Source: Candidatus Iainarchaeum sp. (GTDB lineage: Archaea > B1Sed10-29 > WALL01). Taken from it: a stretch of 64,000 nt of DNA. The DNA lies in contig JAGMCR010000002.1 in the NCBI GenBank assembly GCA_023129115.1, positions 32,001-96,000 of the forward strand, in the 5' to 3' direction. Below, piece after piece: positions 42,872 to 64,000 of this stretch (the stretch's first letter is position 1; each line of letters opens with the position of its first letter). Below the pieces are notes generated by a model. The model did not search any database, was not told the origin of the DNA, and saw only the letters and a program-made list of their open reading frames with translations. Position numbers and translations under genes: made by a program.

Positions 42872-42944
42872 GCCTCGGTAGCTCAGCCGGTAGAGCGGCA
42901 GTCTCGTAAACTGCAGGTCGGGGGTTCAATTCCCTCCCGAGGCT
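42872..42944 (+). tRNA. tRNA-Thr(CGT)
   Basis: Acceptor GCCTCGG/CCGAGGC, anticodon arm GCAGT-CTCGTAA-ACTGC, T arm GGGGG-TTCAATT-CCCTC, discriminator U; TTTAAATA upstream. Confidence 0.97.
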
Positions 42945-43060
42945 CTGACCCTACGGTAGTAGAGCCTGCACCATAAAATTGTTGATGATTGCCTATAACG
43001 CTTTCGTTGCAGCCCTAACTCCTTGAATTTCCTAGGAAATCCGCGGAAACTGGAGGACGC

Positions 43061-43279
43061 TTAATAGAATTCTTCTTTTGGCTTTCCAGTCTGCTTGATT
43101 ATGTGCTTTATCACAAAAACAGTTATGGTTGTGTGGTGCGGCACTCACGTTGTCAACACTTTTTTCTTTGACACTTGTTTCTTGTAAGTGATGTGCTTGC
43201 TGGACCTGGCTTTCTTGAGGCCATTGTCCTTGAGTATGCCCTCGACCTTACGCCTTGACAGCTGGCGAAGCCCTGCCAT
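43061..43279 (-). pseudogene. hicA: HicA-family toxin pseudogene
   Basis: Read by hand: MAGLRQLSRRKVEGILKDNG...SSKHITY...VLTT*VPHH...IIKQTG; in-frame TGA at 43145-43147. Confidence 0.75.
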
Positions 43280-43345
43280 GATGGGCAACCTCCGGCAAAG
43301 AAATGGGTATGCTACTCAATGAAACAGAAACCGACATCATTGTTT

Positions 43346-43525
43346 TTAGGGTGTGGGCTTGGGTGTGTCCGGGTCTTTCATATACTCGTTAACCAATTCC
43401 GCCATATTTTCCTTTACCTCTTTCTCGGTTTTTCCTTGTGTGGCCACGTCAAGAACAGGGCAAGAAGCCACAAACCACTTATCCTCTTTAGTAACGATTA
43501 TTGGTAAAGGAATAGCTTGTTTCAC
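43346..43525 (-). pseudogene. hicB: HicB-family antitoxin, probably truncated by frameshift
   Basis: Read by hand: IVTKEDKWFVASCPVLDVATQGKTEKEVKENMAELV; stops at 59 aa while another frame continues to overlap the hicA start. Confidence 0.75.
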
Positions 43526-43596
43526 TGAAAATCACCCTCTGAAATAGGTTATCAAACCCGCGCTATTTAAAAGTATCCGCAAAAAAGAGGTGCTCC

Positions 43597-44250
43597 TTGG
43601 TCCTGCCAAAGTTATTAAAGAACCCCACACAATATTCTAGCGTGCCTGGAGATATCATCCCTGAAAAGAAGACTAAGACACAAAAAGCGATTAGGGCACT
43701 CTTTGCTTTTGGTGAGAAGCAGCGGGAGCTACCTTACGTTAAGACCAGCCGTCCAGGACACTTGGTTGCGCGGAGTATGAAGCGTGCTAACGAGCTGGTT
43801 GAACAAGCAACAACTATTTGGGAAGAAACGAAGGACAAGGAACAAAGCGGCAGGATTGGGCCGTGGGGAAGTGGGTTTAAGATAATTTACCCACAGGATT
43901 CTCGCCTTAGGGGTGAAGTGTTCCATGAGCTGAAGAGGATAACCCGCGACCTGAAAAGGGCGAGTTCGCAAAAACTTTCTGAAGAAGAACTGCAGGAGGA
44001 AGCTGCGCGGCTCAAGAATTTTTATACTCGGGGAATTCCATCCGGTCGCACGCCCGAAGCCGAGGCGAAGGCAGACGCTATGCTCACAGACGAAGAGAAA
44101 GCAATCCTAGGGGAACTCGGTTTGGACGAGGACAAGTACAACGAGCACGTCCAACACCTCGCCAGCGCCCTGGAGTCTTCACACGAGGACCTTTACGAGC
44201 TGATGGTACACCTTATAAAAGAAGGAAAAGAGGTAAAGCTGCTCAAATAA
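43597..44250 (+). CDS. Hypothetical protein
   Basis: 217-aa ORF with TTTAAA box and GAGGTG RBS upstream. Confidence 0.65.
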   Translation: MVLPKLLKNPTQYSSVPGDIIPEKKTKTQKAIRALFAFGEKQRELPYVKTSRPGHLVARSMKRANELVEQATTIWEETKDKEQSGRIGPWGSGFKIIYPQDSRLRGEVFHELKRITRDLKRASSQKLSEEELQEEAARLKNFYTRGIPSGRTPEAEAKADAMLTDEEKAILGELGLDEDKYNEHVQHLASALESSHEDLYELMVHLIKEGKEVKLLK

Positions 44251-44328
44251 CTCTTTTATGTGCAGACCCTCAATATAGTGTAAAAGCCCCACCCCGTTTT
44301 TTAAAGAATCCCGCACAACATTCTAACA

Positions 44329-44796
44329 ATGGCAAGAACACCTCAATGGATCAAAAACCTGGGCGGTCACGCAGGCGAGTTATACGTCGCGGCTGAACTA
44401 TCTAAACGTGGAATACCCAATGCATTGCTCCCCGAGAACTTTTCTGACGATGATATTTTGATTGCGCAGAAAGATGGAAGTGAAATTGGCTATATCCAAG
44501 TAAAGTCCTGTCACCCAAATCGTTCCGACTCCTTCATTCTTCGCTACACTGAAGAAGAGTGGACAAAAGCAAAAAGTAACGAGTACGTGGTTTTAGTGTA
44601 CTTGGGGACTCCCGAAGAAAACGAATCCCCACGTTATTGGATAACAACAAAGAAAAAAATGGGAAAAGCATGTGTTGAACACGGGGCACACGGAACCAAA
44701 AACTGGGAACGCCGCTTTTGGATGAAGACTATGGAATCAGACTACAAAAAATGGGAGAATAATTGGGGGCTCTTTAAGAAGTACCTTCCTAAGTGA
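44329..44796 (+). CDS. PD-(D/E)XK-fold nuclease-like protein
   Basis: AGELYVAAEL...DDILI...IQVKS. Confidence 0.8.
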   Translation: MARTPQWIKNLGGHAGELYVAAELSKRGIPNALLPENFSDDDILIAQKDGSEIGYIQVKSCHPNRSDSFILRYTEEEWTKAKSNEYVVLVYLGTPEENESPRYWITTKKKMGKACVEHGAHGTKNWERRFWMKTMESDYKKWENNWGLFKKYLPK

Positions 44797-44820
44797 TTAA
44801 AAAAAAATGGAGAGATTCGT

Positions 44821-45453
44821 TTGAAGAAAATTAGTGTATCTGAACTGACTTTTGCGCAAATACGCGCAGCCTCCAAAGAGTTCAGAAAGCGCGAGGAGAG
44901 GGATTCAATATACAAAATCACTACAAAGCTCGTGAACGAGGCATGGGCCAAGAAAGGCAAGGGATTCACTCTCGCCGATGCCATTAGCGTGCTACTACTC
45001 GTTTGGAACCAGGGGTTCTACCGCTACGGAAGACTCAACTTCACTAAGTTCGATAAAGCTATCAAGAAGAACAAGCCACTACTGGCAAAGTTTAGGAAGC
45101 GAAAAATCGCAAGCTTCACAGCAAAGGATGAAACAACAATCAAGAAGCTATTCAACGATTTACTTGAGGCCACGTCCATCAAAACGAGGAAACAGAAGAA
45201 AAAGATGGTCAGCCCAGTCAGCGTTGCCAAAGCACTCCACATGATGGCTCCCAGATTCTTCCCGTTATGGGACGGAGCCATCGCCGTTGGATGGGGCTGT
45301 CGATTCAACCGGGACAACGCTGCTGACAAGTACCTGAAGTTCATGAGGCAAAACAAGGAACTGATGGGAAAATACAGTGGCCGCGGGCTAACCTTAAAAA
45401 TGATTGATGAATGTAGTTACGCAATATACACCGCGGGATGGTATCCACGATAG
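44821..45453 (+). CDS. Hypothetical basic protein, possibly nucleic-acid modifying
   Basis: LLVWN...SVAKALHMMAPRFFPLWD motif; its 3' end is duplicated at 52323. Confidence 0.6.
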   Translation: MKKISVSELTFAQIRAASKEFRKREERDSIYKITTKLVNEAWAKKGKGFTLADAISVLLLVWNQGFYRYGRLNFTKFDKAIKKNKPLLAKFRKRKIASFTAKDETTIKKLFNDLLEATSIKTRKQKKKMVSPVSVAKALHMMAPRFFPLWDGAIAVGWGCRFNRDNAADKYLKFMRQNKELMGKYSGRGLTLKMIDECSYAIYTAGWYPR

Positions 45454-45611
45454 ACAGGTCATTTCCTAGGAACTTCCGCGGAAATGAGGTGTGTGAGGGG
45501 CAAAAACCCGTGTAGGCTCTACAGCCGTACGACTTGTTCCCTCCCGAGGCTCTGTATCTCTGGTGCCAGAGCGCAAGCTAAATCATTCTTTTTTTTGTGC
45601 ACTTGCCTTTG

Positions 45612-46208
45612 CTAAAGCGACTTCGCGAACTTGTCCGAGGTGGTCATCTTTGCGTACAGCGGCAGTATGTCCATCATCGCGTCGTAGTTGCTGTCGGTGA
45701 AGCCGCTGGTCGCGTCCTTCAGAAGGGTCACGTTGTATCCCTTGTTGGCCGCGCGCTTAACAGTCGTTGCGATGACGTGCTCGGTGCACTGCCCGCTGAT
45801 ATATACGTGGTCGACTCCGGCCGAACGCAGTACTAAATCGAGGTCGGTTCCCTCGAAGCCGTCAGAGCCGTAGTTGATGACGATTACATCGTCTTTCTTG
45901 GGCTCGAGCTCCTTGATGACCTTGGCATCCCAGCTGCCCACCAAAGCTTTGTTCGCGTCTTTGGCTCCCTGCATGAGGGGGTAGTACTGGTTCTTGGGCA
46001 TTTCAGGATAGCCTGGTCTCCACGCGATGTTGACGAAGACGGTCAGCATCTTCTTCCTTCGGGCTGCGGAAAGCGCCTTCTTCGCCTTGGGTATTGACTT
46101 GTTCTTCTTGATTTGGGGGTACAGCATCTTGCCCCAAACGCCTTTGGGGTGGGCCACACCGTTTTGCCAGTGTAGCATTAGCAAAGCAGATTTTTTGACA
46201 TTAACCAT
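45612..46208 (-). CDS. Isochorismatase-family (cysteine hydrolase fold) protein
   Basis: GFEGTDLDLVLRSAGV, ISGQCTE, GYNVTLLKDATS. Confidence 0.88.
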   Translation of the reverse strand: MVNVKKSALLMLHWQNGVAHPKGVWGKMLYPQIKKNKSIPKAKKALSAARRKKMLTVFVNIAWRPGYPEMPKNQYYPLMQGAKDANKALVGSWDAKVIKELEPKKDDVIVINYGSDGFEGTDLDLVLRSAGVDHVYISGQCTEHVIATTVKRAANKGYNVTLLKDATSGFTDSNYDAMMDILPLYAKMTTSDKFAKSL

Positions 46209-46259
46209 GATAATTCACCGAAAGCAAACAAGCTTCCGTGCAATAAAAACGTTTCGGTT

Positions 46260-46284
46260 GGGGTTCAATTCCCTCCCGAGGCTC
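46260..46284 (+). repeat. Longest tRNA-Thr 3' copy (25 bp, att-like), directly upstream of the integrase
   Basis: GGGGTTCAATTCCCTCCCGAGGCTC identical to 42921-42945. Confidence 0.95.
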
Positions 46285-46359
46285 CATTACTGCGTCAAGG
46301 AGCCCCTGCTCAATTCCGCACCAGTCTATAAATAGTCCTTTGAGCAGAGCCTCGGAGGC

Positions 46360-47529
46360 ATGAGGACTGACCCTTACAACACCGGCACGAAGCTAGTGAA
46401 TTGCCTTGAGCGGGTTAGGCAATCGCTTGACCTATGTAAAGCCAACAAGCGGCTGATTCTTGAGTTCCACGCCGAGGCCGTTGCCCGTGGCTTGTCGGAA
46501 AAGCGGTGCCTTAAGTACGTGAGTACTCTCCGCAACCTCGGAACCCAACTTGGAAAGCCCTTTAACAAGGCGGACAAGCACGACATCATTCGCTTGCTCT
46601 CTTGGCTTGAGTCAACCGCGTACAAGGAGTGGACGAAGCACGACTACAAAGTCATTCTGAAATCGTTTTACAAGTGGCTGAACGGTGGAGAAGAGTATCC
46701 AAAGGTTGTTTCGTGGGTAAAAACAGGGATGAAGAACGGCAACCACATGCTGCCCGAGGAATTGCTGACCGAGGAAGACGTGCGTGCTTTAGTTGAAGCG
46801 TGTACGAACCCGCGCGACAAAGCTTTTGTCCTCACGTTGTACGAGAGTGGCTGCCGAATAAGCGAGCTGCTGACGTTGCAGGTAAAGAGCGTGAGGTTTG
46901 ACGAGCACGGCTCAATCTTGCGAGTGACTGGGAAGACCGGTGACAGGCGCGTGAGGGTGATTTCCGCGGCTCCGGCAATCGCGTTGTGGCTCGACAACCA
47001 CCCCACAAGGAAAGGGCACTTGTTTTGCTCCTTGGATGGGACGGGCATCAACTACTCGACCGCTAACGTGCTGTTAAGGAGGCTTGCTAAGAAGGCAGGC
47101 ATTACGAAGCGTGTTAATCCGCACGGTTTCCGCCACGCCCGGGCCACGTCGCTCGCGAACAAGCTCACAGAAGCCCAAATGAAGGAGTTCTTTGGTTGGG
47201 CTCAAAGTAGCGAGATGGCGGCTGTGTACGTCCACTTGTTGGGGCGGGACGTGGACGATGCCCTGCTAAGCATTTACGGCGTGAAGCCACCCGAGGACGC
47301 TCGCAAGGAGCGTTTCGTGCCTAGGGCTTGTCCCAGGTGCAAGGAGACTAATTCTCCTGCTAGTAAATACTGTTGCAGGTGTGGCAGTGCGCTCGACCTC
47401 GCAACAGCGCTAGAGGCTGATGACAAGCACAAGGAAGCCGATGCATTGATGAACGAGCTCATCAAAGACGACAGGATAAAAGCGCTTCTATTGGAGCGGT
47501 TGGTTGCCATCCAAGCAGAGAATCATTAA
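46360..47529 (+). CDS. Tyrosine recombinase/integrase with C-terminal Zn ribbon (SNJ2-like archaeal family)
   Basis: ESGCRISE (R), GKTG (K), HGFRH (HxxR), FGW, VYVH (Y), CPRC...CCRC; catalytic set intact. Confidence 0.95.
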   Translation: MRTDPYNTGTKLVNCLERVRQSLDLCKANKRLILEFHAEAVARGLSEKRCLKYVSTLRNLGTQLGKPFNKADKHDIIRLLSWLESTAYKEWTKHDYKVILKSFYKWLNGGEEYPKVVSWVKTGMKNGNHMLPEELLTEEDVRALVEACTNPRDKAFVLTLYESGCRISELLTLQVKSVRFDEHGSILRVTGKTGDRRVRVISAAPAIALWLDNHPTRKGHLFCSLDGTGINYSTANVLLRRLAKKAGITKRVNPHGFRHARATSLANKLTEAQMKEFFGWAQSSEMAAVYVHLLGRDVDDALLSIYGVKPPEDARKERFVPRACPRCKETNSPASKYCCRCGSALDLATALEADDKHKEADALMNELIKDDRIKALLLERLVAIQAENH

Positions 47530-47996
47530 CCTTTTCGTTTGAGGTTGTTGTATATATTGAGTGGTTCAGCGCTCAAATTCTCGCGTTCCTGGCCTTGGTT
47601 CAACTGATTTTTTAGGAATTCAATAGCTGCCAAGTAGCTCATCGGGAGCGCATCAGAAGTGTTTTCTCCCCCTGTTCAGGAATCCACATTACGAAAAAAT
47701 TCGGATTTGAGAATGTTGTATTCTCTCTTGTATTAATGGGGCAGTTTTCGGTGCGGATTCTAAGGCGTTGCTAGTGATTGACCATTGTGTAATTAGGATT
47801 CTAATTATTCAGAAAGTAGGGGTTGTGTGAAGCTCGGGGGTGAATACTGACCCTGATGAGGGTTCTGCATTACGAAAAAATTGGGATTCGGAAGTTGGCC
47901 TCCTTTTAGTGATAGAAAATGGATTTGGCCTTAGTTCACGTTTAAACATAGGTTTTTATTTGAGGACTGCTTTTTTGGCTAAGGAGCGGATTGCTG

Positions 47997-48665
47997 ATGA
48001 CTGATACTTTAGTTGATGTTTTGCTGATGCCGAACATTATGGCACTATGGGTTCCAATAATCATAGCGGCCGCCTTAGTAATCCTAATGGGATTGGTTGT
48101 CCGCCACAAAAAAGTTTCTATATCTAAGTCTAAAAAATCGCCAGATAACAAAAAAGTTGCTTTCAGATCACTTGTGATTGTTGCAGTACTATCGTTGGTA
48201 TTTTTCTTTGTTGAACCCCAGATAATAAAAGGTCTCTCCACACCACTTTTAACAATCCCATTTAGTGTTGTCCCCGCTCTTCTACTCGGATTATTTTACA
48301 CTGGACTTCAATACACTCCCATAGAAATCAAATCAGACAAGAAGAAAGCGACGCTAACAGTTGATTTTATTACTATTAATCTATGCGCACTCTTCGCATT
48401 CTTGACATTGTTTAACTTCTCTCCTTATTTCCCCGGCGCGTTCACTAGCACGAGCAACATAGCAATCATTTTCATAATTGCGTTGGTACAGACTTTTTTG
48501 TTCTCGCTGATTGTGTTCGCTTCGGAAAAAGTAAAATTCATCAGACTAAAAAATTTCCTTGGGATTCCAAATTGGCTGATATGTGTTATACTCTTTATCC
48601 TGCCTTGGTTGTTTTTGATGTATGAAAAAGCTATCCCAGTGGTGGGTGGCCTCAGGACCCTATAA
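47997..48665 (+). CDS. Multi-pass membrane protein
   Basis: About six hydrophobic helices; AT-rich DNA. Confidence 0.7.
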   Translation: MTDTLVDVLLMPNIMALWVPIIIAAALVILMGLVVRHKKVSISKSKKSPDNKKVAFRSLVIVAVLSLVFFFVEPQIIKGLSTPLLTIPFSVVPALLLGLFYTGLQYTPIEIKSDKKKATLTVDFITINLCALFAFLTLFNFSPYFPGAFTSTSNIAIIFIIALVQTFLFSLIVFASEKVKFIRLKNFLGIPNWLICVILFILPWLFLMYEKAIPVVGGLRTL

Positions 48666-48756
48666 TCAAAAATGCCTAAATCGGCATTTGTTTAAACGTT
48701 TGGACGATATGTATTTATTCTGCAAGCGCTTTTTGTTTGAGTCGGGGTGTTCTTCA

Positions 48757-51570
48757 ATGAAGCGAATGTTAGATGCATCTAAGGGCTCAGTTATAGTGGT
48801 GGTTTTTATCCTACTCTTAATTGTTGGGGTTTATGCGTTTGCTCCGTGTCCTGTTTCTCCACCAGTAAACGAAGGTGACCCACTGCCAATACCTTGCTTT
48901 GAAGAAGGTATGTGCATGGGTGGTTGTTGCTGCTATGATGGTTATCTTCTTCTCGAAAGGAATACTACTGAAGAACAGCCCAGCGCGATTACAGGTATGA
49001 TGGTAGCAACCGCACCTTTAGAAGGCAATGCAATTGAGCCCCACAAAGTGGTTAGTTTGGTTGGTTTTGAAGGCTATGACAAGAATAGGGACAAGGTTGC
49101 GGATTCCATGCAGAACGGTGTTTACTTAGAGGGCGCTACAAAAGAACTATTCACTGTTGCTTTTGACCACAAACCAACAGAAGAAGACAAAAAACTGGTT
49201 AGAGATATGGGTGGGGAGGTTGTTTACGATTTCTCATTGATTTACGCTTTAACAGTTAGGATACAACCAACCAAAATAACTGAGTATGCAGCAGCCAATC
49301 CACATGTAGTTATCGTGAGTGACCCCCGTGTAACTAGATCACTGAAGATATACCGCACAGCAAAAGTAGTTCGTGTTCGACCTCTAGTTTGGGAAACCTA
49401 TGGCTACAATGGTAGCGGGGAAGTAGTCACAGTAATGGATAGTGGCGTAGATGACTCCCACGCAGATTTACAAGGCAAAATAAAAAACTGGATGGACTGC
49501 AATCCTGCAGGATGCACTACTATTGGTCAGACACTGCATGACAACGTGGGCCATGGAACGAGTATTGCGGGGATTATTGTGGGGTCTGGGACGCAGGTGG
49601 GTGGTTCTAGTGGAGTAGCCACAGTGAACATTATGATTCATAGCCGGTTTACGGGCGAAGGCGGAGAAGTATGGGGTGGCTATTTTTCAGTGGATACTGA
49701 TGATAACACCCATTCCATTGACGGAACCCTTAATTGGGAGGCGGCTGACGGGCAGGACAATTACACAATAAAAGTAACCAACTCTACAGGGCTACCAAAC
49801 GGTGTTATTGGGGACGAAACTTCCGATTCAGACCCCTTAACCTTAACCACCAACTCATTCACAGAAACCAGTGAAATCCAGTACAAGTTTTACGTTAGCG
49901 CAGAGAGTGGCAATGCACATAACAGCACTGATGAAGCCTATTTCGCGCAAATGAGTACACCTATTGAATCGGTGGGGGATAGTTATAACCTCATGAGGGG
50001 ACTGGCACCAGGTAGCGAGCTTGTTTCCGTGAAAGTTGTGCCAGATGATAATGACATAGCTCATTTATGGACTATGAATAATGCCTATGATTGGATTGGG
50101 TCTAATTCTGAATCAGATGGCGTTAAAGTGGTTTCCATTAGTTTGGGTGGGACAACCGCTGACCCTATTGAATCAAAAGTCATTAGTAACACGATAGACA
50201 AAGGGGTTCTGCCCGTTGCAGCAACAGGTAATGATAACGGTGTTATCGACTACCCTGCTAGGTATCCTGAAGTGCTTGCTGTGGGGGCGATTGACAGCGA
50301 TGGAGACGTGGCGGATTACAGTAATTACGGGAACTCAAGTGAAGGCTCTGAAAAATGGCCCGATGTTGTTGCTCCCGGTGGGTCAAGCTGGTTCACTTAT
50401 GAAAAATACCCTGTTTTAACACTCGACACAAACGACGCTGAGTGTGTGACGAACACAGGCCTAACTACATGCGAAAGTTTCTCTGAAGAATACACTAATG
50501 ACTCCATCTATGCGTACGGTACTTCCATGGCTGTCCCCCACGTATCCGCGATAGCTGCCTTGATTGCTGAGGCGAAGGGGAGTTGGACTTACAACTCTTC
50601 TACTGACCCGTTGTGGGTAAAAATGGTTATTTCGATGACGGCTTGGGAGACCAACGAAACCAACCGTGGTTCTAAAGACATCTATGAAGGCTATGGAGTA
50701 GTCGCTGCCGACGCGGCAATCGAAGCGGTTATCTTCAACCACACGCTTGGGGACATTGAGTCAGATACTTTTGGCTCGGGATTGACTGACAAGAAGGTGT
50801 GGGCCCGCGAAGTTTCGCCGGGAGACAAGGAAATTGATTTCACGCTGGTGGTGCCAAGCGGCGCGGACTACGACCTCTACCTTTACAACAATACTCCTGA
50901 CCAGTACGGCCAGCCACAGATACTGGACAATTCGACAACTGCTGCGACCGGCGGCACAGAAAGCATTACCTACAACTTTTCGGCGAGTCAGGAAGCGTAT
51001 TTGGTGGTGAAGTGGGTCAGCGGTAACGGAGCATTTACTTTGTCTAGTGTGGAAGACAAGGACAAAATGAGTTTGATTCAGGGTTGGAACCAGTTTTCGT
51101 TCCCGAAGCTTCCGGCGAACAAGACTGTGGCCAACGTGTTCTCTTCAATTAGTGGTAGTTATGACCGGATAGATGATTACATCGCTAACAACAAGTCGTG
51201 GCGGATTTACGACGTAGCTGCAATTGGCTATTCCATGACGTTAAGCAACATTGAGGGGGGCAGGTCTTATCGCATTCATATGAACCAGGCCGACACAATT
51301 GAGTTCAGCGGCACGGACGTGGCGCCAATCAATATCTCGCTTTATGAGGGCTGGAATTGGCTCGCTTGGCCAGGCGAGACGGAGGCAATCGCCAGTGCGT
51401 TGAGCTCAATCGACGGGAGCTACAACAGAATAGATGAACTCTACGCTGGGGAGTGGGAAATTTATGATAGCTCCATCCCCGATGAGTACGACCAATCCCT
51501 GGACTACATGAAAAGAGGCAGAGGGTACGTAATTCTCATGAACTCTAACGACACACTCGAGGTGAATTAG
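48757..51570 (+). CDS. Secreted S8 (subtilisin-like) serine protease with PPC-like and C-terminal repeat domains
   Basis: VMDSGVD, HGTSIAG, ATGN, GTSMAVPHV; N-terminal TM helix; two L..GWN repeats. Confidence 0.93.
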   Translation: MKRMLDASKGSVIVVVFILLLIVGVYAFAPCPVSPPVNEGDPLPIPCFEEGMCMGGCCCYDGYLLLERNTTEEQPSAITGMMVATAPLEGNAIEPHKVVSLVGFEGYDKNRDKVADSMQNGVYLEGATKELFTVAFDHKPTEEDKKLVRDMGGEVVYDFSLIYALTVRIQPTKITEYAAANPHVVIVSDPRVTRSLKIYRTAKVVRVRPLVWETYGYNGSGEVVTVMDSGVDDSHADLQGKIKNWMDCNPAGCTTIGQTLHDNVGHGTSIAGIIVGSGTQVGGSSGVATVNIMIHSRFTGEGGEVWGGYFSVDTDDNTHSIDGTLNWEAADGQDNYTIKVTNSTGLPNGVIGDETSDSDPLTLTTNSFTETSEIQYKFYVSAESGNAHNSTDEAYFAQMSTPIESVGDSYNLMRGLAPGSELVSVKVVPDDNDIAHLWTMNNAYDWIGSNSESDGVKVVSISLGGTTADPIESKVISNTIDKGVLPVAATGNDNGVIDYPARYPEVLAVGAIDSDGDVADYSNYGNSSEGSEKWPDVVAPGGSSWFTYEKYPVLTLDTNDAECVTNTGLTTCESFSEEYTNDSIYAYGTSMAVPHVSAIAALIAEAKGSWTYNSSTDPLWVKMVISMTAWETNETNRGSKDIYEGYGVVAADAAIEAVIFNHTLGDIESDTFGSGLTDKKVWAREVSPGDKEIDFTLVVPSGADYDLYLYNNTPDQYGQPQILDNSTTAATGGTESITYNFSASQEAYLVVKWVSGNGAFTLSSVEDKDKMSLIQGWNQFSFPKLPANKTVANVFSSISGSYDRIDDYIANNKSWRIYDVAAIGYSMTLSNIEGGRSYRIHMNQADTIEFSGTDVAPINISLYEGWNWLAWPGETEAIASALSSIDGSYNRIDELYAGEWEIYDSSIPDEYDQSLDYMKRGRGYVILMNSNDTLEVN

Positions 51571-51690
51571 AGGGGGATACTTGACCTGGTCAAGCTGTCC
51601 TCCCGGGGCTCTGACCCTACGGTAGTAGAGCCTGCACCAAACTATTTATAGAACTTTGAGCAGAAGCCCTTGCGATGGGCAGGATAAACC

Positions 51691-52649: not shown

Positions 52650-52661
52650 CTCCCGAGGCTC

Positions 52662-54926: not shown

Positions 54927-54930
54927 AAAA

Positions 54931-56028: not shown

Positions 56029-56034
56029 GGTTGT

Positions 56035-56868: not shown

Positions 56869-57002
56869 CACACCCCCTTTCCGCGGAAGCTTCCCCGGAA
56901 ATGACTTGGGTGTGGCTGATTTTGGGCGCAGGCTCTAGAGCCATACGAGCTGTTCTCCCCCGAGCTCTTTTATACTTCTTTTGACTAAAATTGTTTACTC
57001 TT

Positions 57003-58058
57003 ATGCATACACAAGAGCTTGTCACACGGCTTGAGGATGCGGAGAAAGCCGTTTCTGGGTACGGGGGGCAAAGGCTGTTGCTAATCAGCCAGTACTACGG
57101 CGCCCAAATGGATTTCGTCGATAGGATAGAGGCGGGCGTTGAGAGGGGCAAGAGGCTGATGAGTGCGGACATTGTTGTCAGAAGAAAGCATGCCATGAGC
57201 CAGCAGAAGATTTTCAAGAGGATGGCGCAGTTTTTCAAGCAAGTCGATGGCTCATACAAAAAAGGGGACATCAAGGACAAGGAGGGCCGTGTGTTCGCCC
57301 GCGCCTATGACAAGGCGGTCCACGGCCATTTTGCCAAGGTACGGGAGATTCTTTCAGAGGTAGAGGGCATGGCCGTGGTATACACGGAATTTGTTGGGCT
57401 TGAGGAAGAAGCAAAAAGGCAAAAGAAAAAGTTGGGGAAAAGGAAGGCGTCCATCCATGCATTGCTCGAGGAAGCGGGCTCGGTAAAGCCGCTTGATGGC
57501 GATTACGTGAAAAAGCATGGGGAAGTGCTTCGGAGCCTGGAGAAAGCCAAGGGGCTTAGGGCGGAGTACATACAAAAAATTCGTGGCAAGAGTGTTATGG
57601 AGTACGTGGCAATGCTGAAAAACAAGGATTTGGTCAAGGTGGGCTTTCCAGGCGCGGACCCTGCTGACATCACCAAATTCTTGAATGCTTATCCAGAGCT
57701 CTCAAAGGCAACGCCGGAGAAACTGCTTGAATATCGTTCCTGGACAGACGGGAAGCTAAAGCACACAATCCCGGAGACCAAGAGGTTCAGGAGCATGATG
57801 CAGGAGTATGGCTCTTGGCTGGAACGCCTTGAGCACCTTGAGTCATTGGGGTTCATGGTTGTTAGGAACGTGGAGGACGCGAAGAGGCTCGCGCCATTAT
57901 TCAGGGGGACCGAGGCCGGTGGCGTGCTGTCAAGCCTTAGCGGGCTTGGGGATTACTGGATGGCGCCCCCCAAAGGCGCACCAGTCAGGGACACACCAAA
58001 GCTAAAAAAAGAGCTTTCCGAGATAGGCAGGGAACTGGCGCTTCTGGAAGGCGTTTAG
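57003..58058 (+). CDS. Hypothetical helical protein (single-gene cassette)
   Basis: ORF fills the interval between cores at 56954 and 58066. Confidence 0.7.
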   Translation: MHTQELVTRLEDAEKAVSGYGGQRLLLISQYYGAQMDFVDRIEAGVERGKRLMSADIVVRRKHAMSQQKIFKRMAQFFKQVDGSYKKGDIKDKEGRVFARAYDKAVHGHFAKVREILSEVEGMAVVYTEFVGLEEEAKRQKKKLGKRKASIHALLEEAGSVKPLDGDYVKKHGEVLRSLEKAKGLRAEYIQKIRGKSVMEYVAMLKNKDLVKVGFPGADPADITKFLNAYPELSKATPEKLLEYRSWTDGKLKHTIPETKRFRSMMQEYGSWLERLEHLESLGFMVVRNVEDAKRLAPLFRGTEAGGVLSSLSGLGDYWMAPPKGAPVRDTPKLKKELSEIGRELALLEGV

Positions 58059-58130
58059 GCCCAATCCCTCCCGGGGCTTTCCGGGGGAGGTGGGCAACGC
58101 AAAGCTTAAATATTAGAAATGCGTACTATA

Positions 58131-58237
58131 GGGCGCTGTAGGTTTGAGAGGTTGTGAACCGCAAGGCTTGCAACGAATTATGTCCCGAAAGTGGCATAAG
58201 GGCCGTGTAGAAAATAGCTCTTAAACCTGTAGCACTT
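58131..58237 (+). ncRNA. Putative structured small RNA (three-way junction)
   Basis: BRE/TATA-like CGCAAAGCTTAAATAT at 58098-58113; closing stem GCTGTAGGTTTGAGAG/CTCTTAAACCTGTAGC with G-U pairs; two hairpins capped by GCAA and GAAA; T-rich tract downstream. Confidence 0.65.
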
Positions 58238-58462
58238 CAGCGCTTTCTGTTGTTTCAACTGTGTATGGACCTTAGTTCTCACGCTTCATTTCCGCGGAAC
58301 TTCCTAGCCGCAGGATTTATAGCCGTACGAGCTGTTCCCTCCCGAGGCTCTCAGACCACGTCAAGGAGCCCCCGCTCAATTCCGCACCGGTTTACATGCC
58401 TGTTTATAAAGGTTTACGATATATCGTACACCTTTATATAATAGTTCAAACACCGATTAAGC

Positions 58463-59653
58463 ATGGAGCTAGGACTCTGGAAGGTTGTGGAGCAATGGAA
58501 TTACTGGAAGGAAAAGCCAGAAACCGGTATTCCCAGGGACGTGACCGCAGAGGCAATGGAGTTCTTTAAAGGCAGCGAAGCGCTTTATTTTTTTGGCCCG
58601 CGGCGAGCCGGGAAAACATTTGTTTGCATGCAGCTGCTGTCAAAGCTGTCAAAGAAGCACGGGAAGAAATCTTGCTTGTACGTGAACTTTGAGGAGCCTG
58701 CTCTTGCCGGGAACCTGCGCACGGAATTCATAGAAGAAATCGTTGTAGAATTCAAAAAAGTGCATGGGAAGTGGCCTCGCTTCGTTTTCCTTGACGAAGT
58801 CCAGAACGTTAAAGGCTGGGAGCGCTGGGTCCGCGGAGCAGTGGACAGGAAACGGTTCAAGGTTTTTGTCACTGGATCTTCTGCGAAACTCTTGAGTTCA
58901 GAGTTCTCCACTTCTCTTGGGGGGAGGGGGATAGGCTTTCTGGTATTGCCGTTTTCCTTTAGCGAGTTTAGGCGTGCAAAACCAAAAGCGGGGCTCAAGG
59001 AGTACCTTGAGATTGGGGGCTATCCAGCGGTTGTACTGGAAAAAAACGAGCGCAAGCGCAGGAGGATGCTGGAAGAGTATTTTGACACTGCCATCATGAG
59101 GGATATAGTGGCTAGGCACGACGTGAGAGACGTGCCAACATTAAGAACGCTTGCCGTTTACTTACTGACAAATTCTGGAAAGCGCTTCAGCTACAATAAG
59201 CTTCGGGCAATGACACATCTCTCTTTTGACGCGCTTAGGCAGTACCTGTCATATCTTGAGGACGCATTAGTGGTTTTCCAAGTACCGTATTTTTCGTACT
59301 CCATGAAAAAAGCGCTTGAAAAGCCCCGCAAGTACTATGCTTATGACCTTGGGCTGCAGGGAGCTGTATCAAAGTCGTTTAGTCCGGACTGGGGAAGAAA
59401 AGCCGAGAACGCGGTTGCAATAGAGCTGGTTCGGCGAAGAAAAGAAATTCAATACTACTCAAACAAGTTTGAAGTCGATTTCATAATAAAAGAAGGAACA
59501 AAGATAAAGCCGGTAAATGTCTGCTACTCAGAGAAACCACCGCAAAGGGAAACAAAAAGCCTTGAAGAGTTTTCCAAAAAACACAAGTCAGAACCCCCTC
59601 TGTTGCTTTGCGGGAAGGATAACATCTTGAAGTGGCTGAAAACAAACCAATGA
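58463..59653 (+). CDS. AAA+ ATPase (AAA_14 + DUF4143 type)
   Basis: GPRRAGKT, FLDEVQ, VTGSS, GGYP, KYYAYDLG, EVDF. Confidence 0.92.
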   Translation: MELGLWKVVEQWNYWKEKPETGIPRDVTAEAMEFFKGSEALYFFGPRRAGKTFVCMQLLSKLSKKHGKKSCLYVNFEEPALAGNLRTEFIEEIVVEFKKVHGKWPRFVFLDEVQNVKGWERWVRGAVDRKRFKVFVTGSSAKLLSSEFSTSLGGRGIGFLVLPFSFSEFRRAKPKAGLKEYLEIGGYPAVVLEKNERKRRRMLEEYFDTAIMRDIVARHDVRDVPTLRTLAVYLLTNSGKRFSYNKLRAMTHLSFDALRQYLSYLEDALVVFQVPYFSYSMKKALEKPRKYYAYDLGLQGAVSKSFSPDWGRKAENAVAIELVRRRKEIQYYSNKFEVDFIIKEGTKIKPVNVCYSEKPPQRETKSLEEFSKKHKSEPPLLLCGKDNILKWLKTNQ

Positions 59654-59695
59654 AAAAATGCTCCTTGACGTGGCCAAGCCGCCCTCCCGGGGCTC

Positions 59696-59722
59696 AGCGT
59701 CCTGGGGGGCGCAGCCCCCCCA
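59696..59722 (+). repeat. 5' fragment of the structured element serving as the left end of the DNase cassette
   Basis: AGCGTCCTGGGGGGCGCAGCCCCCC directly after the core. Confidence 0.85.
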
Positions 59723-59776
59723 CTGGGCGGTTCGGCACGCGCGGGGTTTATTAACCTTCTTTTCGTTGGCTGTGCA

Positions 59777-60607
59777 ATGAAGCGCGTTGCCCTGCCCATA
59801 CTGCTGCTCTTGCTTGTTGGCTGCATTGGCACGCCTTCTCCACCAGCCGGCCAGTGCTCTGGCCCCACTGTCTCAATCGCGACGTTCAACATACAAGTCT
59901 TCGGGCAAGCAAAAATGGGCGACCCGGAAGCCGTGGACTCGCTCGTGGGCATAGCCACACGGTTTGACATCGTCGCCATCCAAGAGGTCCGCGACGCAAG
60001 CGAGACCACTGTCCCGCGCTTCGTCAGCGAAATCAACTCACGCAACCACTCCTACGCGTACGTAATAAGCGAGCGGCTCGGCTCCACGTCGTCAAAAGAG
60101 CAGTACGCCTTTGTCTACAACACAGAAACAATCTCGTTCGAAAACTTTTCGTACCTCGTCAACGACACCGTGTTCGAGCGCCCGCCGTTCGTCGCAAAGT
60201 TCAGGGCAGGAGAGTTTGATTTTTTCCTCGTGAACACGCACGTGAAGCCGGAGAAGGGGCGCACCGCCAGCGAGATAAAAGCGCTTGCCGGCGCGGTCAC
60301 TGAAGACGAGGACTACATAATCCTGGGCGACTTCAATGCCGACTGCTCTTACCTCGACGAAAAAACGCTTTCCTCCCTCTTGCCCGGGCTGGACATAATC
60401 GTTTCCAACGAAGACGATACCACAGTGGGCGCGTCCGACTGCACGTACGACAGGATAGCCATCACGCCACGAACGCGTGAGGACTACTCAAGCTACGGAG
60501 TGTACTTGTTCGACAAAGAGCTTGGGCTGGACAGCACGCAAGCAAAAAGCGTGTCAGACCATTACCCCGTGTACGCAGAGTTTTACATTTCGTGCGACAC
60601 CGATTGA
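59777..60607 (+). CDS. DNase I-like (EEP) extracellular lipoprotein nuclease
   Basis: LVGC lipobox-like motif, TFNIQVFG, IQEVRD, KEQY, LGDFNADC, YDRI, SDHYPV. Confidence 0.92.
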   Translation: MKRVALPILLLLLVGCIGTPSPPAGQCSGPTVSIATFNIQVFGQAKMGDPEAVDSLVGIATRFDIVAIQEVRDASETTVPRFVSEINSRNHSYAYVISERLGSTSSKEQYAFVYNTETISFENFSYLVNDTVFERPPFVAKFRAGEFDFFLVNTHVKPEKGRTASEIKALAGAVTEDEDYIILGDFNADCSYLDEKTLSSLLPGLDIIVSNEDDTTVGASDCTYDRIAITPRTREDYSSYGVYLFDKELGLDSTQAKSVSDHYPVYAEFYISCDTD

Positions 60608-60646
60608 TGGGCTCCAAGAAGTGAATCCCTCCCAAGGCTCCATCTC

Positions 60647-60837
60647 AGCGTCCTTAGGGGGAGCGCAGCTCCCCCTGGCCCAGACGAACAACAACCGAAC
60701 ATCCTGTGGGGGATGTCCGGTATCCTGCGGGATGTACGTCATACCCTGGGAAGCCTCACCCCCTCAGTAATCCTGTACTAATCTGTCTCTTGGGGCCTTG
60801 TGCCCCAAAGCCTAACGTGCCAGCTGAGTTTCAGCTG
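60647..60837 (+). repeat. Structured non-coding element, third full copy
   Basis: AGCGTCC...GGGGGAGC-GCA-GCTCCCCC...CCCTCAGTAATCCTGTACTA...TTGGGGC-CTTGT-GCCCCAA...CTAACGTGC CAGCTGA-GTT-TCAGCTG. Confidence 0.88.
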
Positions 60838-60944
60838 AATCCCTCCCGAGGCTCTCATTCTATGGTAGTAGAGCCTGCGCCAAAGTGTCTTGCAAGTTGA
60901 TTAGCAGCAAAAGCCTGACACAATTTTCCGAGCTTGGAACACTT

Positions 60945-62864
60945 CTATTTGGAGTCTCCTAGCACTTGGTGGTAAAAGTTGGACTCCCGGGCCAGTGCAT
61001 CCACTTCGTTTTTCTTGACCCTAAAGCCGTGTGTTTCGCCTTCGTATTCCACGTATTCGTGCCTCACTCCTTTTTCTTCCAGTGCCCGAACCACTTCCCT
61101 GGAGCACTCGGGGGTGACAACCTTGTCATCACTACCCTGGAAAAGAATCATGGGGTTTTTCAACGCTTCCAAGTGATAAATGGGAGAACGGTCTTTGAAC
61201 ACCTCTCTTCCCTTGGAAAGTGTTGTTCCCACCAGGTTTTCAATGTACCGTGACTCGAATTTGTGAATTTGTTCTTCTAAAGTGATTAGGTTGCCGATGC
61301 CGTAGTAACTAGCTCCCACTGCAAACAAGTCAGGATACTGGGTCATCATCCTTTGCACTAGGTACCCTCCTGCACTCCCTCCCCTGATGGCAACCCTGGA
61401 CCCATCTACTTGTCCCTTTTTTATCAAGTGCTTCACGGCGTTGGCCACGTCCTCGGCGTCAACCACGCCCCAGGAGGATGGGAGCTTGTCCCTGTACTTC
61501 CTGCCGTAGCCCGTGCTTCCCCGGTAGTCCACGTCCACCACGGCAAAGCCGGACGAAGTCCAGAATTGCGTGACAAAGGAAAACGAGGCGTGGGTATTGC
61601 TCGTGGGGCCTCCATGCGCCACTACCAACAACGGCGGTTTTTCTCCCTCCATGGGCAGGTATCCGCTGTTTTTAGGGGGGTAAAAAAAGGCGTGTGCCTG
61701 TTCTCCGCCTCCAGTGGAGTAAGTTATGAACTGGGGGAGGGAAACGTCTTCCGGCTTCATTTCCAGCGAAGAACCCTCCCTTAACACATCCAGCTTCTTG
61801 GACTCCATGCCAAAGGCGTACACGCTGGCAACGCTGGTACTGCTGGCCCCAACGAAAAATATGCTGCCTTCCTTGTCTGTTTTCAGGTGGTGGTACGTGT
61901 TCAGACCTGTTTCCACGCGTGACACAGATTTGTCTTCAGGGTCAACAAATACCAAGTGCTCTGTTCCTTCTTTGGTCATCACGGCTACTATCCTGCCGTC
62001 GGGAAGGAAGTCGTAAGTGCTCTGCCCGAAGGCCCACAACGGCCTGCCGAACTCGGCTTGTTCACAGGTAATCCTATTCACTTCGCCGTCCCAAGCGTAC
62101 AGGTTCCACCAATTCTCAGGCGAAAAAGGGTCTTCCGCCACCCTGTCCTTGGCATAATACAGCTTGTCCTCTTGGTTGAAGCGGGGCAGGCAAATAGCGC
62201 AGTCTTTCCCCCCCTCCACTTTTTTTACGTCACGGACGCTGTCCTTCCTCCACTTGCCCATCATTAACTCCGTGCCATCCCACGGCATGTTGGGATGGTT
62301 CCACTGGAGCCACGCCACGTATTTTCCCGAAGGCGAAAAGACAGGACTAGCATAGAAATCGCTGCCCCGGGCAACGATGCGGGGCTCCACCGCTTTTTCA
62401 GAACGCGCGTCCAGCACGGCTAGAAGATTCTCGTTTTCCTTGTCTCCGCACTCTTTTTCGTAGACAAACAAAAGGCTTTTTCCGTCAGGGCTTACTGTGA
62501 GCGAGGCATACTTACCCAAGGACCCGTCTTTGTTTGTTGGGGGGGTGAGGGGCCTGGCTGCAGAAGAGCTTGGGGGTTGATGGTAAATGCGTTGGTCCTG
62601 GAAGTTGGAGAAGTAAACATTCCCCCCAAAAACCGCGTACGCTCCTCCACCGTACTCGTGAACCCTGTTCCTGGCGCTGAAACCAGGGGGGGTGACGTCC
62701 CCCCTGTTTTTGGAGACTACTACGCAACGCCCGCCTTCGGCCGGCCGCATTTCCAGCCAGTAGGCGTCACTGCCGTCGGTTTGAATCTCGCTCAGTCTGA
62801 CCACGTCAGAAAATACTTGCTGGGGGGAAATGGCGGACTGCCATTGAAGAAACGGTTTTTGCAT
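60945..62864 (-). CDS. S9 prolyl oligopeptidase-family peptidase
   Basis: HGGP, DYRGSTGYG, GGSAGG, QGSDD, ETHGF. Confidence 0.93.
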   Translation of the reverse strand: MQKPFLQWQSAISPQQVFSDVVRLSEIQTDGSDAYWLEMRPAEGGRCVVVSKNRGDVTPPGFSARNRVHEYGGGAYAVFGGNVYFSNFQDQRIYHQPPSSSAARPLTPPTNKDGSLGKYASLTVSPDGKSLLFVYEKECGDKENENLLAVLDARSEKAVEPRIVARGSDFYASPVFSPSGKYVAWLQWNHPNMPWDGTELMMGKWRKDSVRDVKKVEGGKDCAICLPRFNQEDKLYYAKDRVAEDPFSPENWWNLYAWDGEVNRITCEQAEFGRPLWAFGQSTYDFLPDGRIVAVMTKEGTEHLVFVDPEDKSVSRVETGLNTYHHLKTDKEGSIFFVGASSTSVASVYAFGMESKKLDVLREGSSLEMKPEDVSLPQFITYSTGGGEQAHAFFYPPKNSGYLPMEGEKPPLLVVAHGGPTSNTHASFSFVTQFWTSSGFAVVDVDYRGSTGYGRKYRDKLPSSWGVVDAEDVANAVKHLIKKGQVDGSRVAIRGGSAGGYLVQRMMTQYPDLFAVGASYYGIGNLITLEEQIHKFESRYIENLVGTTLSKGREVFKDRSPIYHLEALKNPMILFQGSDDKVVTPECSREVVRALEEKGVRHEYVEYEGETHGFRVKKNEVDALARESNFYHQVLGDSK

Positions 62865-63060
62865 TTTTCTCACCGGTATACTACATCCCTCGAAAACACA
62901 TTTATAATTTAGTCTTCCGGAATATAATGGTGGGGTACTCCTTAGCCTAGCCAAGCAGCCCTCCCGAGGCTTCTATCTATTAACGCCTCAAAAAAGCCAT
63001 AAATCCTAACCGCACGCCACTGTTCTTATCATCTTTGTGCCCTCGTGCTAGACATTACCC

Positions 63061-63945
63061 CTATCCACACTGTACCTTCCGCTCGTCGTATCCCATAGCG
63101 ACCCCATCAACAAAGATGCTGGCGTCTACGTGCATTGTTTTGAAAGCTGAAGTAATGATGTACATGACCGGAGTTGTGTGGGTCCAAGAAGTGGTTTCTG
63201 CATCGCCTTTGTTGCGGATGCAGCGTTCCACGCCATACTCGCTTGTGACTGTCCATGCGCCACAGTCCACAGCATCCTCGGGCCACACATATGGGGGCGT
63301 AAGGCTGCTGCCAACCGGCCCGGTCGCAGTCCCTGCAGAAGTTATCTGTATGTCGGCCCAGCCATATTTATCCTCGTTGGTAAAGGTGCACGTCAGGGAG
63401 GTGACCTTTACGTCGGCTGTTACATCCAGGATTGCTGTTGGAGTAGGGGTTGGTGTTGGAGTGGAAGTTGGCGTTGCTGTTGGAGTGGGAGTCGGTTCTT
63501 TTTCAGGCTTCACTATTACAGTAGTGCTCTGGCATTTTTCTGTTGTGCCGTCATTGGCGCATACTCCGAACGTGTAGGTTCCCTCAGTTATCGGCGTGCC
63601 CCTCAAGAGCCCGTTGAGCTCCAGCGCCATCCCAGTCGGCACGAAACCTGCGCCGAATTCAACAGTGAAGAAATACGGCGGATTGCCTCCAATGGGGTTT
63701 GTCGTCTCTCCTGCAAGCCCCCCGCATGTCGCGCCGGACCTTGCAGAGTCTGGCTCACAGAAAGGGTGTGGGGGATAAGGAACGCCGGCTCTGGCATCAG
63801 GAAGCTTGGGAAGCACGGTGAACGTGAGCTCTTCCTCCGGAATCTCCTCGCCGGATTGGGTGCAGCCGCTGGTAAGGACTAACCCGAACACAAGTAGTGC
63901 CCCAAAAAGCACGAACAGCGCTGGATTCTTGCCCATAGCCCCCAT
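63061..63945 (-). CDS. Secreted or lipoprotein with a putative Ig domain and PT-rich linker
   Basis: TSGC lipobox-like motif, GGNPPYFF...PTGMAL...GTP...GTYTF, PTPTPT linker. Confidence 0.8.
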   Translation of the reverse strand: MGAMGKNPALFVLFGALLVFGLVLTSGCTQSGEEIPEEELTFTVLPKLPDARAGVPYPPHPFCEPDSARSGATCGGLAGETTNPIGGNPPYFFTVEFGAGFVPTGMALELNGLLRGTPITEGTYTFGVCANDGTTEKCQSTTVIVKPEKEPTPTPTATPTSTPTPTPTPTAILDVTADVKVTSLTCTFTNEDKYGWADIQITSAGTATGPVGSSLTPPYVWPEDAVDCGAWTVTSEYGVERCIRNKGDAETTSWTHTTPVMYIITSAFKTMHVDASIFVDGVAMGYDERKVQCG

Positions 63946-64000
63946 TAATGCACTGCCGCATTATAAACCTTCCCCAAGCTTTTCAACCGAACAAACCGCA

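Follow-up and report, generated by a model that had tools for sequence, protein, structure and literature searches.

Copies of a tRNA 3' end downstream of tRNA-Thr(CGT)

The window examined here is a 64-kb stretch of DNA (C12:32001-96000) from Candidatus Iainarchaeum sp. (G000), an archaeal genome of 1.25 Mb in 19 contigs that is 88.6% complete. In it, a tRNA-Thr(CGT) gene is followed by an array of small units that are separated from each other by copies of the 3' end of this tRNA (Table 1). The repeated core is made up of the last 13 nucleotides (nt) of tRNA-Thr(CGT) and one flanking base, giving 14 nt. When both strands of the window were searched for CCCTCCCGAGGCTC, allowing up to 2 mismatches, there were 13 matches, all on the + strand, against 0.65 expected from 100 shuffles, of which the largest count was 4 and none (0/100) reached 13.

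The array passes the end of the window, with further cores at window-equivalent positions 66402 (3 mismatches, after an a' tail), 67201, 71055 and 72097, which brings the totals to 18 for core copies and 17 for bounded units. The whole genome has 16 matches to the core when up to 1 mismatch is allowed, 13 of them in this array, two at one locus on contig C13 and one at the end of tRNA-Thr(GGT), and the core is therefore enriched here and not equally common genome-wide. An Rfam scan (E up to 1) of 42000-64000 found tRNA only. The GC content is 0.43-0.54 inside the array, against 0.55-0.64 upstream.

An earlier account made from the sequence alone (the sequence-only reading) had described the copies as intergenic, in a single orientation and marking repeated insertion at the end of the tRNA, all of which agrees with the present results. 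It had counted 14 copies, and that number stands, although three of the coordinates were off by 1-2 nt. The fourteenth, at 56954, is degenerate, but is accepted as a copy because the a' tail in front of it is also found in front of three good copies.

Ends of the units

Unit ends were read from the 60 nt on each side of every core copy, the sequence following a core being the head of a unit and the sequence preceding the next core its tail. There are three end families, A/a', B/b' and C/c', and in each of them the ends are inverted repeats around the tRNA copy. The A head and a' tail are imperfect inverted repeats of each other; the C head and c' tail have the inverted hexamer GTCAAG/CTTGAC in common; and family B has a G-rich hairpin as its head and two hairpins around the motif CCTAACGTGCC as its tail. 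Because the A and C inverted repeats flank the core, a hairpin could form only in a circle or between like neighbours. The A and C heads can be aligned with each other, with invariant ACG and GAGCC blocks, and a (C/G)AGCTG box 0-4 nt from the core is common to the a', b' and c' tails.

Both ends are concordant in nine of the 17 units: 1, 4 and 7 (A), 3, 10 and 16 (C), and 5, 6 and 12 (B). Apart from these and unit 13, which is discordant, the units have one recognised end or none. The right end of unit 2 is a 30-nt fragment of tRNA, containing the T arm and the 3' end. Units 8 and 9 may be a single unit. The 10-nt palindromes TTCCTAGGAA and TTCCGCGGAA have 7 matches, against 0.32 expected, every one in an A/a' unit, where they lie 38-76 nt inside the a' tail and once near a head; they are candidate protein-binding arm sites.

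At C13:142767-143620, beside glmS and with no called tRNA near it, there is an A-type unit on its own, about 0.8 kb long and with an open reading frame (ORF) of 105 amino acids (aa). It is bounded by a T-arm-like fragment and a core on one side and by a second core on the other.

Probable site of exchange in the core

Differences between core copies are associated with the ends that adjoin them. In units 3 and 10, both with C/c' ends, the left core has A at position 9, while the right core, after the c' tail, has G. In the relative G005, an element with an 85%-identical integrase ends with a c' tail and TCCTCCCGGGGCTT, followed by a native-like TATA-rich flank. The end of tRNA-Thr(TGT) in G000 is CCCTCCCGGGGCT followed by T, and since the c'-side variant agrees with the end of that tRNA, the C/c' elements would seem to carry a core of their own, fitted to tRNA-Thr(TGT). 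Integration of such elements at tRNA-Thr(CGT), with exchange to the right of position 9, would give the C/c' junctions that are observed. Position 14 of the core is C where an A, B or C head follows and T where the flank is of another kind.

That core variants travel with the neighbouring end fits site-specific recombination and not target-site duplication, which is disfavoured for the C family because the same substitution would be needed three times. The B element behind tRNA-Thr(GGT) has a repeat of only AGGCTT, which matches a 6-7 bp overlap at the same place. Strand exchange would most likely occur in the last 5-6 nt of the tRNA, about GGCTY.

The long T-arm fragment at unit 2 would suggest an element with a longer attachment site (attP) and exchange further 5' in the tRNA, which would imply that more than one type of recombinase has acted at the tRNA-Thr(CGT) site. 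Integrases that target tRNA genes are reportedly divided into sublocation classes, in a scheme ascribed to Williams in 2002.

The integrase and its remnants

The tyrosine integrase gene at 46360-47529 belongs to unit 3, being enclosed by the cores at 46271 and 51598, at a distance of 3.4 kb from the tRNA. It is the sole PF00589 match of the whole genome, so that the claims of the sequence-only reading that a single unit carries an integrase and that most units are without a recombinase are confirmed. Its view that the enzyme is not an IntI is also supported, as the IntI models are far below their cut-offs (TIGR02249, 46.8 bits against 265; NF011946, 37.4 against 435). The best curated model is that of the archaeal XerA (NF040815), at 131 bits and under its cut-off of 220. 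Residues R166, K192, H255, R258, W280 and Y290, which are presumably the catalytic set, are invariant across 28 homologues, and the 63 residues between K192 and H255 are a spacing that we take to be short and to resemble that of Xer proteins. Judged on its sequence, the integrase looks functional.

Among the 13 genomes of the order (G000 and its relatives G001-G012, of which G002 is a congener), PF00589 is missing from 10, including genomes that are 96% and 98% complete, and a homologue of the integrase is present in just three. As PF00589 is absent from so many of these genomes and the XerA model is below its cut-off, the integrase is not the housekeeping Xer, and the lineage appears to be without XerA. 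Neither a serine recombinase, an IS110 transposase nor Cas1 was found in G000. The integrase belongs to a large family, in which 2062 of the 8000 candidates that were scored match at E up to 0.001. Of the 120 best homologues, most are 45-55% identical, their named sources including Micrarchaeota and Burarchaeum, and the nearest named homologue is labelled Candidatus Diapherotrites. The 77 homologue loci in genomes come also from Bathyarchaeia and other archaea.

Decayed traces of the integrase are found elsewhere. In unit 16 there is a 107-bp stretch that is 96% identical to the promoter and 5' end of the integrase gene. Integrase-type promoter stretches are also found in the heads of units 4 (81% identity to 46318-46348) and 18 and in a unit of G004, and integrase remnants are present in G008, a genome without a PF00589 match, and in G009, where they follow a core copy. 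These remnants indicate that at least some of the integrase-less units descend from integrase-bearing ones. A 51-aa ORF behind the integrase-type promoter of unit 4 was considered as an integrase fragment and ruled out (E 2.6). In G001, a second type of integrase (42% identity) is encoded 42 nt after tRNA-Ser(GCT).

Probable serial integration at the tRNA

Taken together, the locus is probably a hypervariable island of about 30 kb that arose by serial site-specific integration of small elements at the 3' end of tRNA-Thr(CGT), many of which then decayed or were miniaturised. The attP of each element would consist of a left arm, which becomes the tail, the last 12-14 nt of a tRNA-Thr, and a right arm, which becomes the head, the two arms being imperfect inverted repeats. 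Integration would join the intact tRNA to the head and push the junction of tail and core to the far side of the element, and repetition of this event would generate the 18 core copies and 17 bounded units. One unit still has an intact gene for the Xer-like tyrosine integrase, with the others being non-autonomous, like cis-mobilizable elements, and able to move only if the integrase of unit 3, or one from outside, acts on their ends in trans.

The locus in related genomes

In the congener G002, an orthologous HD-domain gene (73% identity) is followed by tRNA-Thr(CGT) and then by 5.4 kb of unrelated DNA in which there is no core copy. The two genomes become syntenic again at a DUF1003 gene (81% identity), whose counterpart in G000 is at C12:104916 (window-equivalent 72916), and this gives a variable interval of about 30 kb for G000 and 5.4 kb for G002. 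That different DNA occupies the same site in a congener supports turnover in the content of the locus between species.

Clusters of 2-4 copies of the Thr end are present at tRNA-Thr in G001, G003, G004 and G009. In G004, which is 98% complete, there are 4 copies in 3 kb, with A-like heads and a'-like tails, and no PF00589 match. In a set of 40 relatives, the only matches to the array are the integrase, a toxin-antitoxin-like stretch, part of the carotenoid operon of unit 7 and the B elements, and no array cassette bounded by the same ends is found elsewhere in these genomes. The pattern of a core followed by an A head has 0 matches in viral contigs and 0 in metagenome contigs.

In a Micrarchaeota genome whose integrase is 49% identical, a repeat of 16 nt occurs 4-5 times, the last copy 138 nt upstream of the integrase gene, with each repeat flanked by the inverted repeats GGCTCAGGTTGC/GCAACCTGAGCC. 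The likeness of this locus suggests that inverted arms around a short core, with short stacked units, recur with this integrase family. In a k-mer screen of the 77 homologue loci, a 13-mer was present at least 3 times at eight; four of these were inspected, one of which is clearly of the array type.

Soundness of the assembly

The assembly was checked against the Logan contigs of three runs (X1, X2 and X3) from one study, X1 being the probable source of the assembly and hence not independent data. Eight X1 contigs tile 42600-62599 in the same order with 27-nt overlaps, at depths of 16.4-21.3; the 33.7-kb chromosomal contig, which has the tRNA at its end, is at 19.2. Depth is 18.5-24 in 28 of 30 bins, and the other two (53 and 43.7) contain B repeats. 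The contigs break only in repeats common to units, these being A heads, a' tails, the integrase promoter repeat and B elements, and single contigs span the copies at 45539, 46271, 56954, 58066, 59682 and 60627. Such joints as were found have short sides or lie in repeats, and are repeat-induced. Runs X2 and X3 contain the same units at low depth.

B elements and b' modules at stable RNA genes

Thirteen of the 38 tRNAs in G000 have a same-strand copy of their last 13 nt no more than 5 kb downstream (17 copies, with three control placements giving 1, 0 and 2). The contigs with copies of tRNA ends are C2, C4, C5, C12, C13, C15 and C18, and most of the downstream copies come after a b' tail. There are 23 b' modules in the genome, after removal of one false match, such as those at 52576-52650 and 60764-60838 of the window; 11 are within 300 nt 3' of a tRNA, two are in the Thr array and three are in an array at the 23S rRNA gene. 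This second array, at C7:67275-73145, consists of four consecutive b'-tailed units (1.1-1.9 kb each) on the 3' side of the 23S rRNA gene, separated by a repeat that comes from the 23S 3' flank and is about 33 nt long; a similar b'-tailed array is present 3' of the 23S gene of G002 (C6). An Rfam scan of the 23S-flank locus found large subunit rRNA only.

The b' tail is about 55 nt long and is composed of a covarying hairpin, CCTAACGTGCC and then the hairpin AGCTGAGTTTCAGCT, with no Rfam match. When copies are folded singly, the shape of the first hairpin is kept with about 10 different stem sequences. The second hairpin has compensatory variants, and in 3 of the 23 copies there are G.U pairs, confined to the sense strand, where the fold is more stable as a result. 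RNAalifold on a MAFFT alignment of 20 modules gave no consensus structure. The tail pattern is confined to the genus among 41 genomes, with 18 matches in G000, 20 in G002, 2 in G001 and none in the other 38. It has 0 matches in viral contigs; a looser pattern matched 16 metagenome contigs, about 10 of which, judged by eye, look like true modules.

Closely similar B elements are found behind different tRNAs. Unit 6 has a 94% identical copy behind tRNA-Glu(CTC) at C4:7050-7222. The copy of unit 12, which is 90% identical, is at C14:11337-11533; it follows another tRNA, whose own 15-nt repeat, with two mismatches, flanks it. This tRNA, at about C14:11166-11339, has an intron and an encoded CCA and was missed by aragorn at its defaults; with a lowered threshold it is called as tRNA-Gln(TTG) with an 81-nt intron. 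Two readings are possible, that the B repeat is copied from the target, or that internal parts are swapped between resident B copies via their conserved ends. Searches of G000 for Cas1, serine recombinases, IS110 and TnpB-like proteins provided no enzyme for the B elements; none of the four TnpB-like (PF07282) genes (C13:134192-134389, C3:10561, C3:79611 and C3:102282) adjoins a b' module.

A second small array is on the minus strand at 5249-8239 of the window (GC 0.47-0.50). Here a b'-tailed B-type element of 137 bp comes after tRNA-Ser(TGA) (8154-8239); the last 13-14 nt of the tRNA are copied at 8003-8015 and again, with 1 mismatch, at about 5249-5261. In other places b' tails or inverted B heads abut the 5' ends of tRNA-Ser genes, in the metagenome contigs L103 (968) and L105 (1168), at C4:39279-39303 in G000 and in G001 (L087:878). 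At C2:5045, on the minus strand, the sequence after a b' tail closely resembles the 3' end of tRNA-Asp, a tRNA that is on another contig (C4:25283).

Alternative explanations

Several observations weigh against serial integration of elements that each carry their own core. Eight of the 17 units are without a concordant pair of recognised ends, the B units are not explained by an element-borne core, and unit 2 indicates a second type of recombinase. Some of the 10 genomes in the order of 13 that have no tyrosine recombinase carry arrays, for which reason the units may be fossils, not mobilizable. At the 77 distant integrase-homologue loci, an aragorn-based test found a duplicated tRNA end at just two. 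The Logan contigs, which drop rare variants, contain no clean core-to-core skip, excision or circle junction, and, as depth is uniform and equal to that of the chromosome, there is no detectable loss of units in the sampled population.

The sequence-only reading saw here an active integron-like platform, at which one recombinase captures, excises and reshuffles non-autonomous cassettes at the tRNA. The single integrase of the genome would suit such a platform, as would the many small units with a single gene, a single operon or no ORF, the box common to all three tails, the homology of the A and C heads, and the wholly different content of the locus in the congener. Such a platform is nevertheless thought unlikely. 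The integrase sits within a unit and not in a platform, and is not IntI, at 46.8 bits against the cut-off of 265; the genes do not all lie on one strand, and the units come with their own TATA-like boxes; the remnant in unit 16 reflects the decay of autonomous elements; and there are neither shuffling junctions in the Logan contigs nor array cassettes with the same ends in the 40 relatives. The proposal that the locus is functionally an integron is thus not supported, and the idea that one recombinase stacked all of the units is doubtful in view of the three end families, the T-arm end of unit 2 and the integrase remnant in unit 16. A broader view, for which the odds seem long, is that a capture system for stable-RNA 3' ends operates throughout the genus, with the array as its largest outlet; the partner would be known by its shape (inverted arms or the two-hairpin b' module) rather than its sequence, and the repeat would be taken from the target. 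Driven by the Xer-like integrase or another enzyme, such a system would be a functional analogue of the integron that uses tRNA ends and no IntI, or else a casposon-like inserter without Cas1. If true, recognition of shape would let mini-elements that are 90-94% identical sit behind different tRNAs and 23S rRNA.

Casposon-like transposition, in which elements with terminal inverted repeats insert at the tRNA 3' end and duplicate 13-15 nt of the target, would account for the inverted repeats, the 14-nt repeat and the choice of target. Duplications of 14 bp and 35 bp and tandem casposons with a shared duplication are described in the portion of PMC4779613 that was available, and it is consistent with duplication that the 90%-identical B elements bear the repeat of whichever tRNA precedes them and that the repeat at the 23S rRNA 3' end is about 33 nt. 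However, Cas1 (PF01867) is found in 0 of the 13 genomes of the order, G000 included, where the control detected it in 7 of 14 known genomes, the repeats flanking C/c' units differ at the same position and in the same direction twice, and again in G005, and the C14 repeat pair differs by two adjacent bases, all of which makes this explanation very improbable. It is scarcely credible that the array is an artefact in which alternative alleles or strains with common junction repeats have been concatenated. The genome is assembled from a metagenome and the Logan unitigs do break at A heads, a' tails and B elements, but every block is at about 1x chromosomal depth, 18.5-21.3 against 19.2, where alternative alleles would give fractional depths, single contigs span six core copies, the nine units with concordant ends are not expected from a scrambled assembly, and the common junction repeats are shorter than a read.

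Contents of the units

The units and core copies in the window are listed in Table 1. Among the genes carried are candidates for defence or toxin-antitoxin functions, several hydrolases and the probable carotenoid operon. Genes are found on both strands, those for the isochorismatase, the TFIIB-like protein and the S9 peptidase and a small ORF in unit 1 being on the minus strand. This small ORF, in the stretch 43059-43554 that is 68-78% conserved in five other genomes, is weakly antitoxin-like (PHD_like, E 0.0011, below the cut-off). TATA-like boxes are present in unit heads; that of the integrase, TATAAATA, is 26-33 nt ahead of its ATG. Among the array proteins scanned there were no replication, capsid or conjugation families, and PHROGs and PADLOC identified no virus or plasmid hallmark in the array, their matches being to the integrase, a protease, PDC-S01 and AbiE only.

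The genes of unit 7 (53063-56868) probably form a carotenoid (bacterioruberin-like) operon. Homologues in G003 have 75-85% DNA identity, with 3.8 kb inserted between them. There is no core copy in the 11.8 kb around this operon, and the G003 contig ends inside it, so that the homologue gives no evidence for cassette movement.

Table 1. Features of the tRNA-Thr(CGT) array within the window
Feature	Position	Strand	Comment
tRNA-Thr(CGT), anchor	42872..42945	+	Rfam tRNA, 70.7 bits
Core in the tRNA, start	42932	+
Unit 1, ends A/a'	42946..45538	+	three ORFs of unknown family (217, 155, 210 aa)
Paired palindromes TTCCTAGGAA, TTCCGCGGAA in a' arm	45463..45483		more at 43029, 52406, 52417, 56879, 58290
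Core copy	45539..45552	+	0 mismatches; a' tail before
Unit 2	45553..46270	+	isochorismatase-family gene on minus strand; right end not an a', b' or c' tail
Core copy	46271..46284	+	0 mismatches; T-arm-like ggttggggttcaatt before
Unit 3, ends C/c'	46285..51597	+	integrase, 224-aa ORF, 982-aa S8 subtilase
Tyrosine integrase, 389 aa	46360..47529	+	PF00589 at 5e-24; C-terminal CxxC...CxxC zinc ribbon
Core copy TCCTCCCGGGGCTC	51598..51611	+	c' tail before; same variant after c' tail in relative G005
Unit 4, ends A/a'	51612..52481	+	TFIIB-repeat ORF, minus strand
Core copy	52482..52495	+	0 mismatches
Unit 5, ends B/b'	52496..52647	+	152 bp, no ORF
Core copy CGCTCCCGAGGCTC	52648..52661	+	first two bases CG from b' tail; repeat 12 nt here
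Unit 6, ends B/b'	52662..52829	+	168 bp, no ORF
Core copy CGCTCCCGAGGCTC	52830..52843	+
Unit 7, ends A/a'	52844..56953	+	PadR regulator, FAD amine-oxidase-type desaturase, CrtC-like hydratase, UbiA prenyltransferase
Degenerate core TCTCCCCCGAGCTC	56954..56967	+	over the 2-mismatch threshold; a' tail before
Unit 8	56968..58065	+	DUF7118 protein; no recognised end family
Core copy CCCTCCCGGGGCTT	58066..58079	+	same as end of G000 tRNA-Thr(TGT) plus one base; in short palindrome
Unit 9	58080..58336	+	257 bp, a' tail only
Core copy	58337..58350	+	0 mismatches
Unit 10, ends C/c'	58351..59681	+	AAA_14/DUF4143 ATPase; PADLOC candidate defence family PDC-S01, 4e-95
Core copy CCCTCCCGGGGCTC	59682..59695	+	c' tail before
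Unit 11, B head	59696..60626	+	endonuclease/exonuclease/phosphatase (EEP)-family protein
Core copy CCCTCCCAAGGCTC	60627..60640	+
Unit 12, ends B/b'	60641..60840	+	200 bp, no ORF
Core copy	60841..60854	+	0 mismatches
Unit 13, discordant: A head, c' tail	60855..62958	+	S9 prolyl-oligopeptidase-family gene, minus strand
Core copy CCCTCCCGAGGCTT	62959..62972	+	c' tail before
Unit 14, start	62973..64000	+	continues to window-equivalent 66401; 294-aa ORF, DUF1295, AbiEi/AbiEii pair

Comparison with known systems

The sequence-only reading took tandem islands to consist usually of a few large units that each have an integrase, a premise that is too narrow. Downstream of ssrA in Dehalococcoides, according to the available text of PMC3146451, there are tandem islands bounded by a 20-bp repeat, with over a dozen repeats and a conserved 15-bp motif upstream of each that cannot be aligned with ssrA, and some islands, read as cis-mobilizable elements, have no integration module. 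The present array resembles these, as far as they are described there, in that direct repeats of a stable-RNA 3' end bound tandem units downstream of the gene, an element-side motif precedes each repeat, some units have no integration module, and the content varies. It differs in its archaeal tyrosine (Xer-like) enzyme, its units of 0.15-5.3 kb, its three families of inverted-repeat ends and the retention of the integrase in one of 17 units. Two features of a cis-mobilizable array are present, namely the direct repeats of the target 3' end, and the one recombinase unit together with the nine units with concordant att-type ends.

In the tycheposons of Prochlorococcus, the part of 10.1101/2020.12.28.424599 that was available describes successive integrations separated by partial tRNAs, scattered remnants and, on average, 1-2 elements per genome. 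The likeness to the present locus extends, on that account, to tyrosine-recombinase elements at tRNA genes, partial tRNA copies and degenerate remnants, and to the adaptive cargo of tycheposon islands. The difference is that here there are 17 units at one site. Replication-type genes such as those for helicase and primase are, we assume, among those that define tycheposons; no helicase, primase or polymerase family (Pfam, PHROG) was found among the array proteins scanned. Tandem integration of archaeal elements at one locus, with later loss of the integrase, is reported in PMC8371274, the available text of which has no case with so many or such small units and 0 occurrences of the terms DPANN, zinc and Micrarchaeota.

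Short units, a recurring recombination site and a tyrosine recombinase nearby are shared with integrons, as presented in the accessible part of 10.1101/2022.02.06.479319. In contrast to integrons as described there, the array has no match to an IntI-specific domain or model and no platform gene with attI, its genes are in mixed orientation with their own TATA-like boxes, and its site, a tRNA end with inverted arms, would seem not to be one folded attC. Casposons, in the section of PMC4779613 mentioned above, likewise have terminal inverted repeats, a 14-nt repeat at the 3'-distal end of a tRNA and tandem copies with one shared repeat, but no Cas1 or PolB-type element was found here and the C/c' core variants argue for an element-borne site. 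Indeed, identical flanking repeats, which are a casposon trait, are not seen in the C/c' units 3 and 10, where position 9 differs.

Given the Dehalococcoides, tycheposon and archaeal precedents, this kind of locus is already known, and no description of such arrays in DPANN archaea was found in the portion of the literature that was searched. The array is not an integron, but an unusually fine-grained case of a known route of gene collection. What is distinctive is the grain (17 units of 0.15-5.3 kb), the three end families, the Xer-less DPANN host and the one surviving integrase.

Significance

The genomes of DPANN archaea are tiny, and these organisms are believed to rely on gene exchange; the way in which genes are taken up is poorly known. 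Here, about 2.4% of a 1.25-Mb genome is in one tRNA-anchored stack that includes defence candidates, hydrolases and a pigment operon. The B elements may show how an element retargets between tRNA genes. If the single integrase acts on the ends of other units, then non-autonomous units as small as 150 bp would be movable, and the locus would, if this is true, provide a simple and testable model of cassette-style capture outside integrons.

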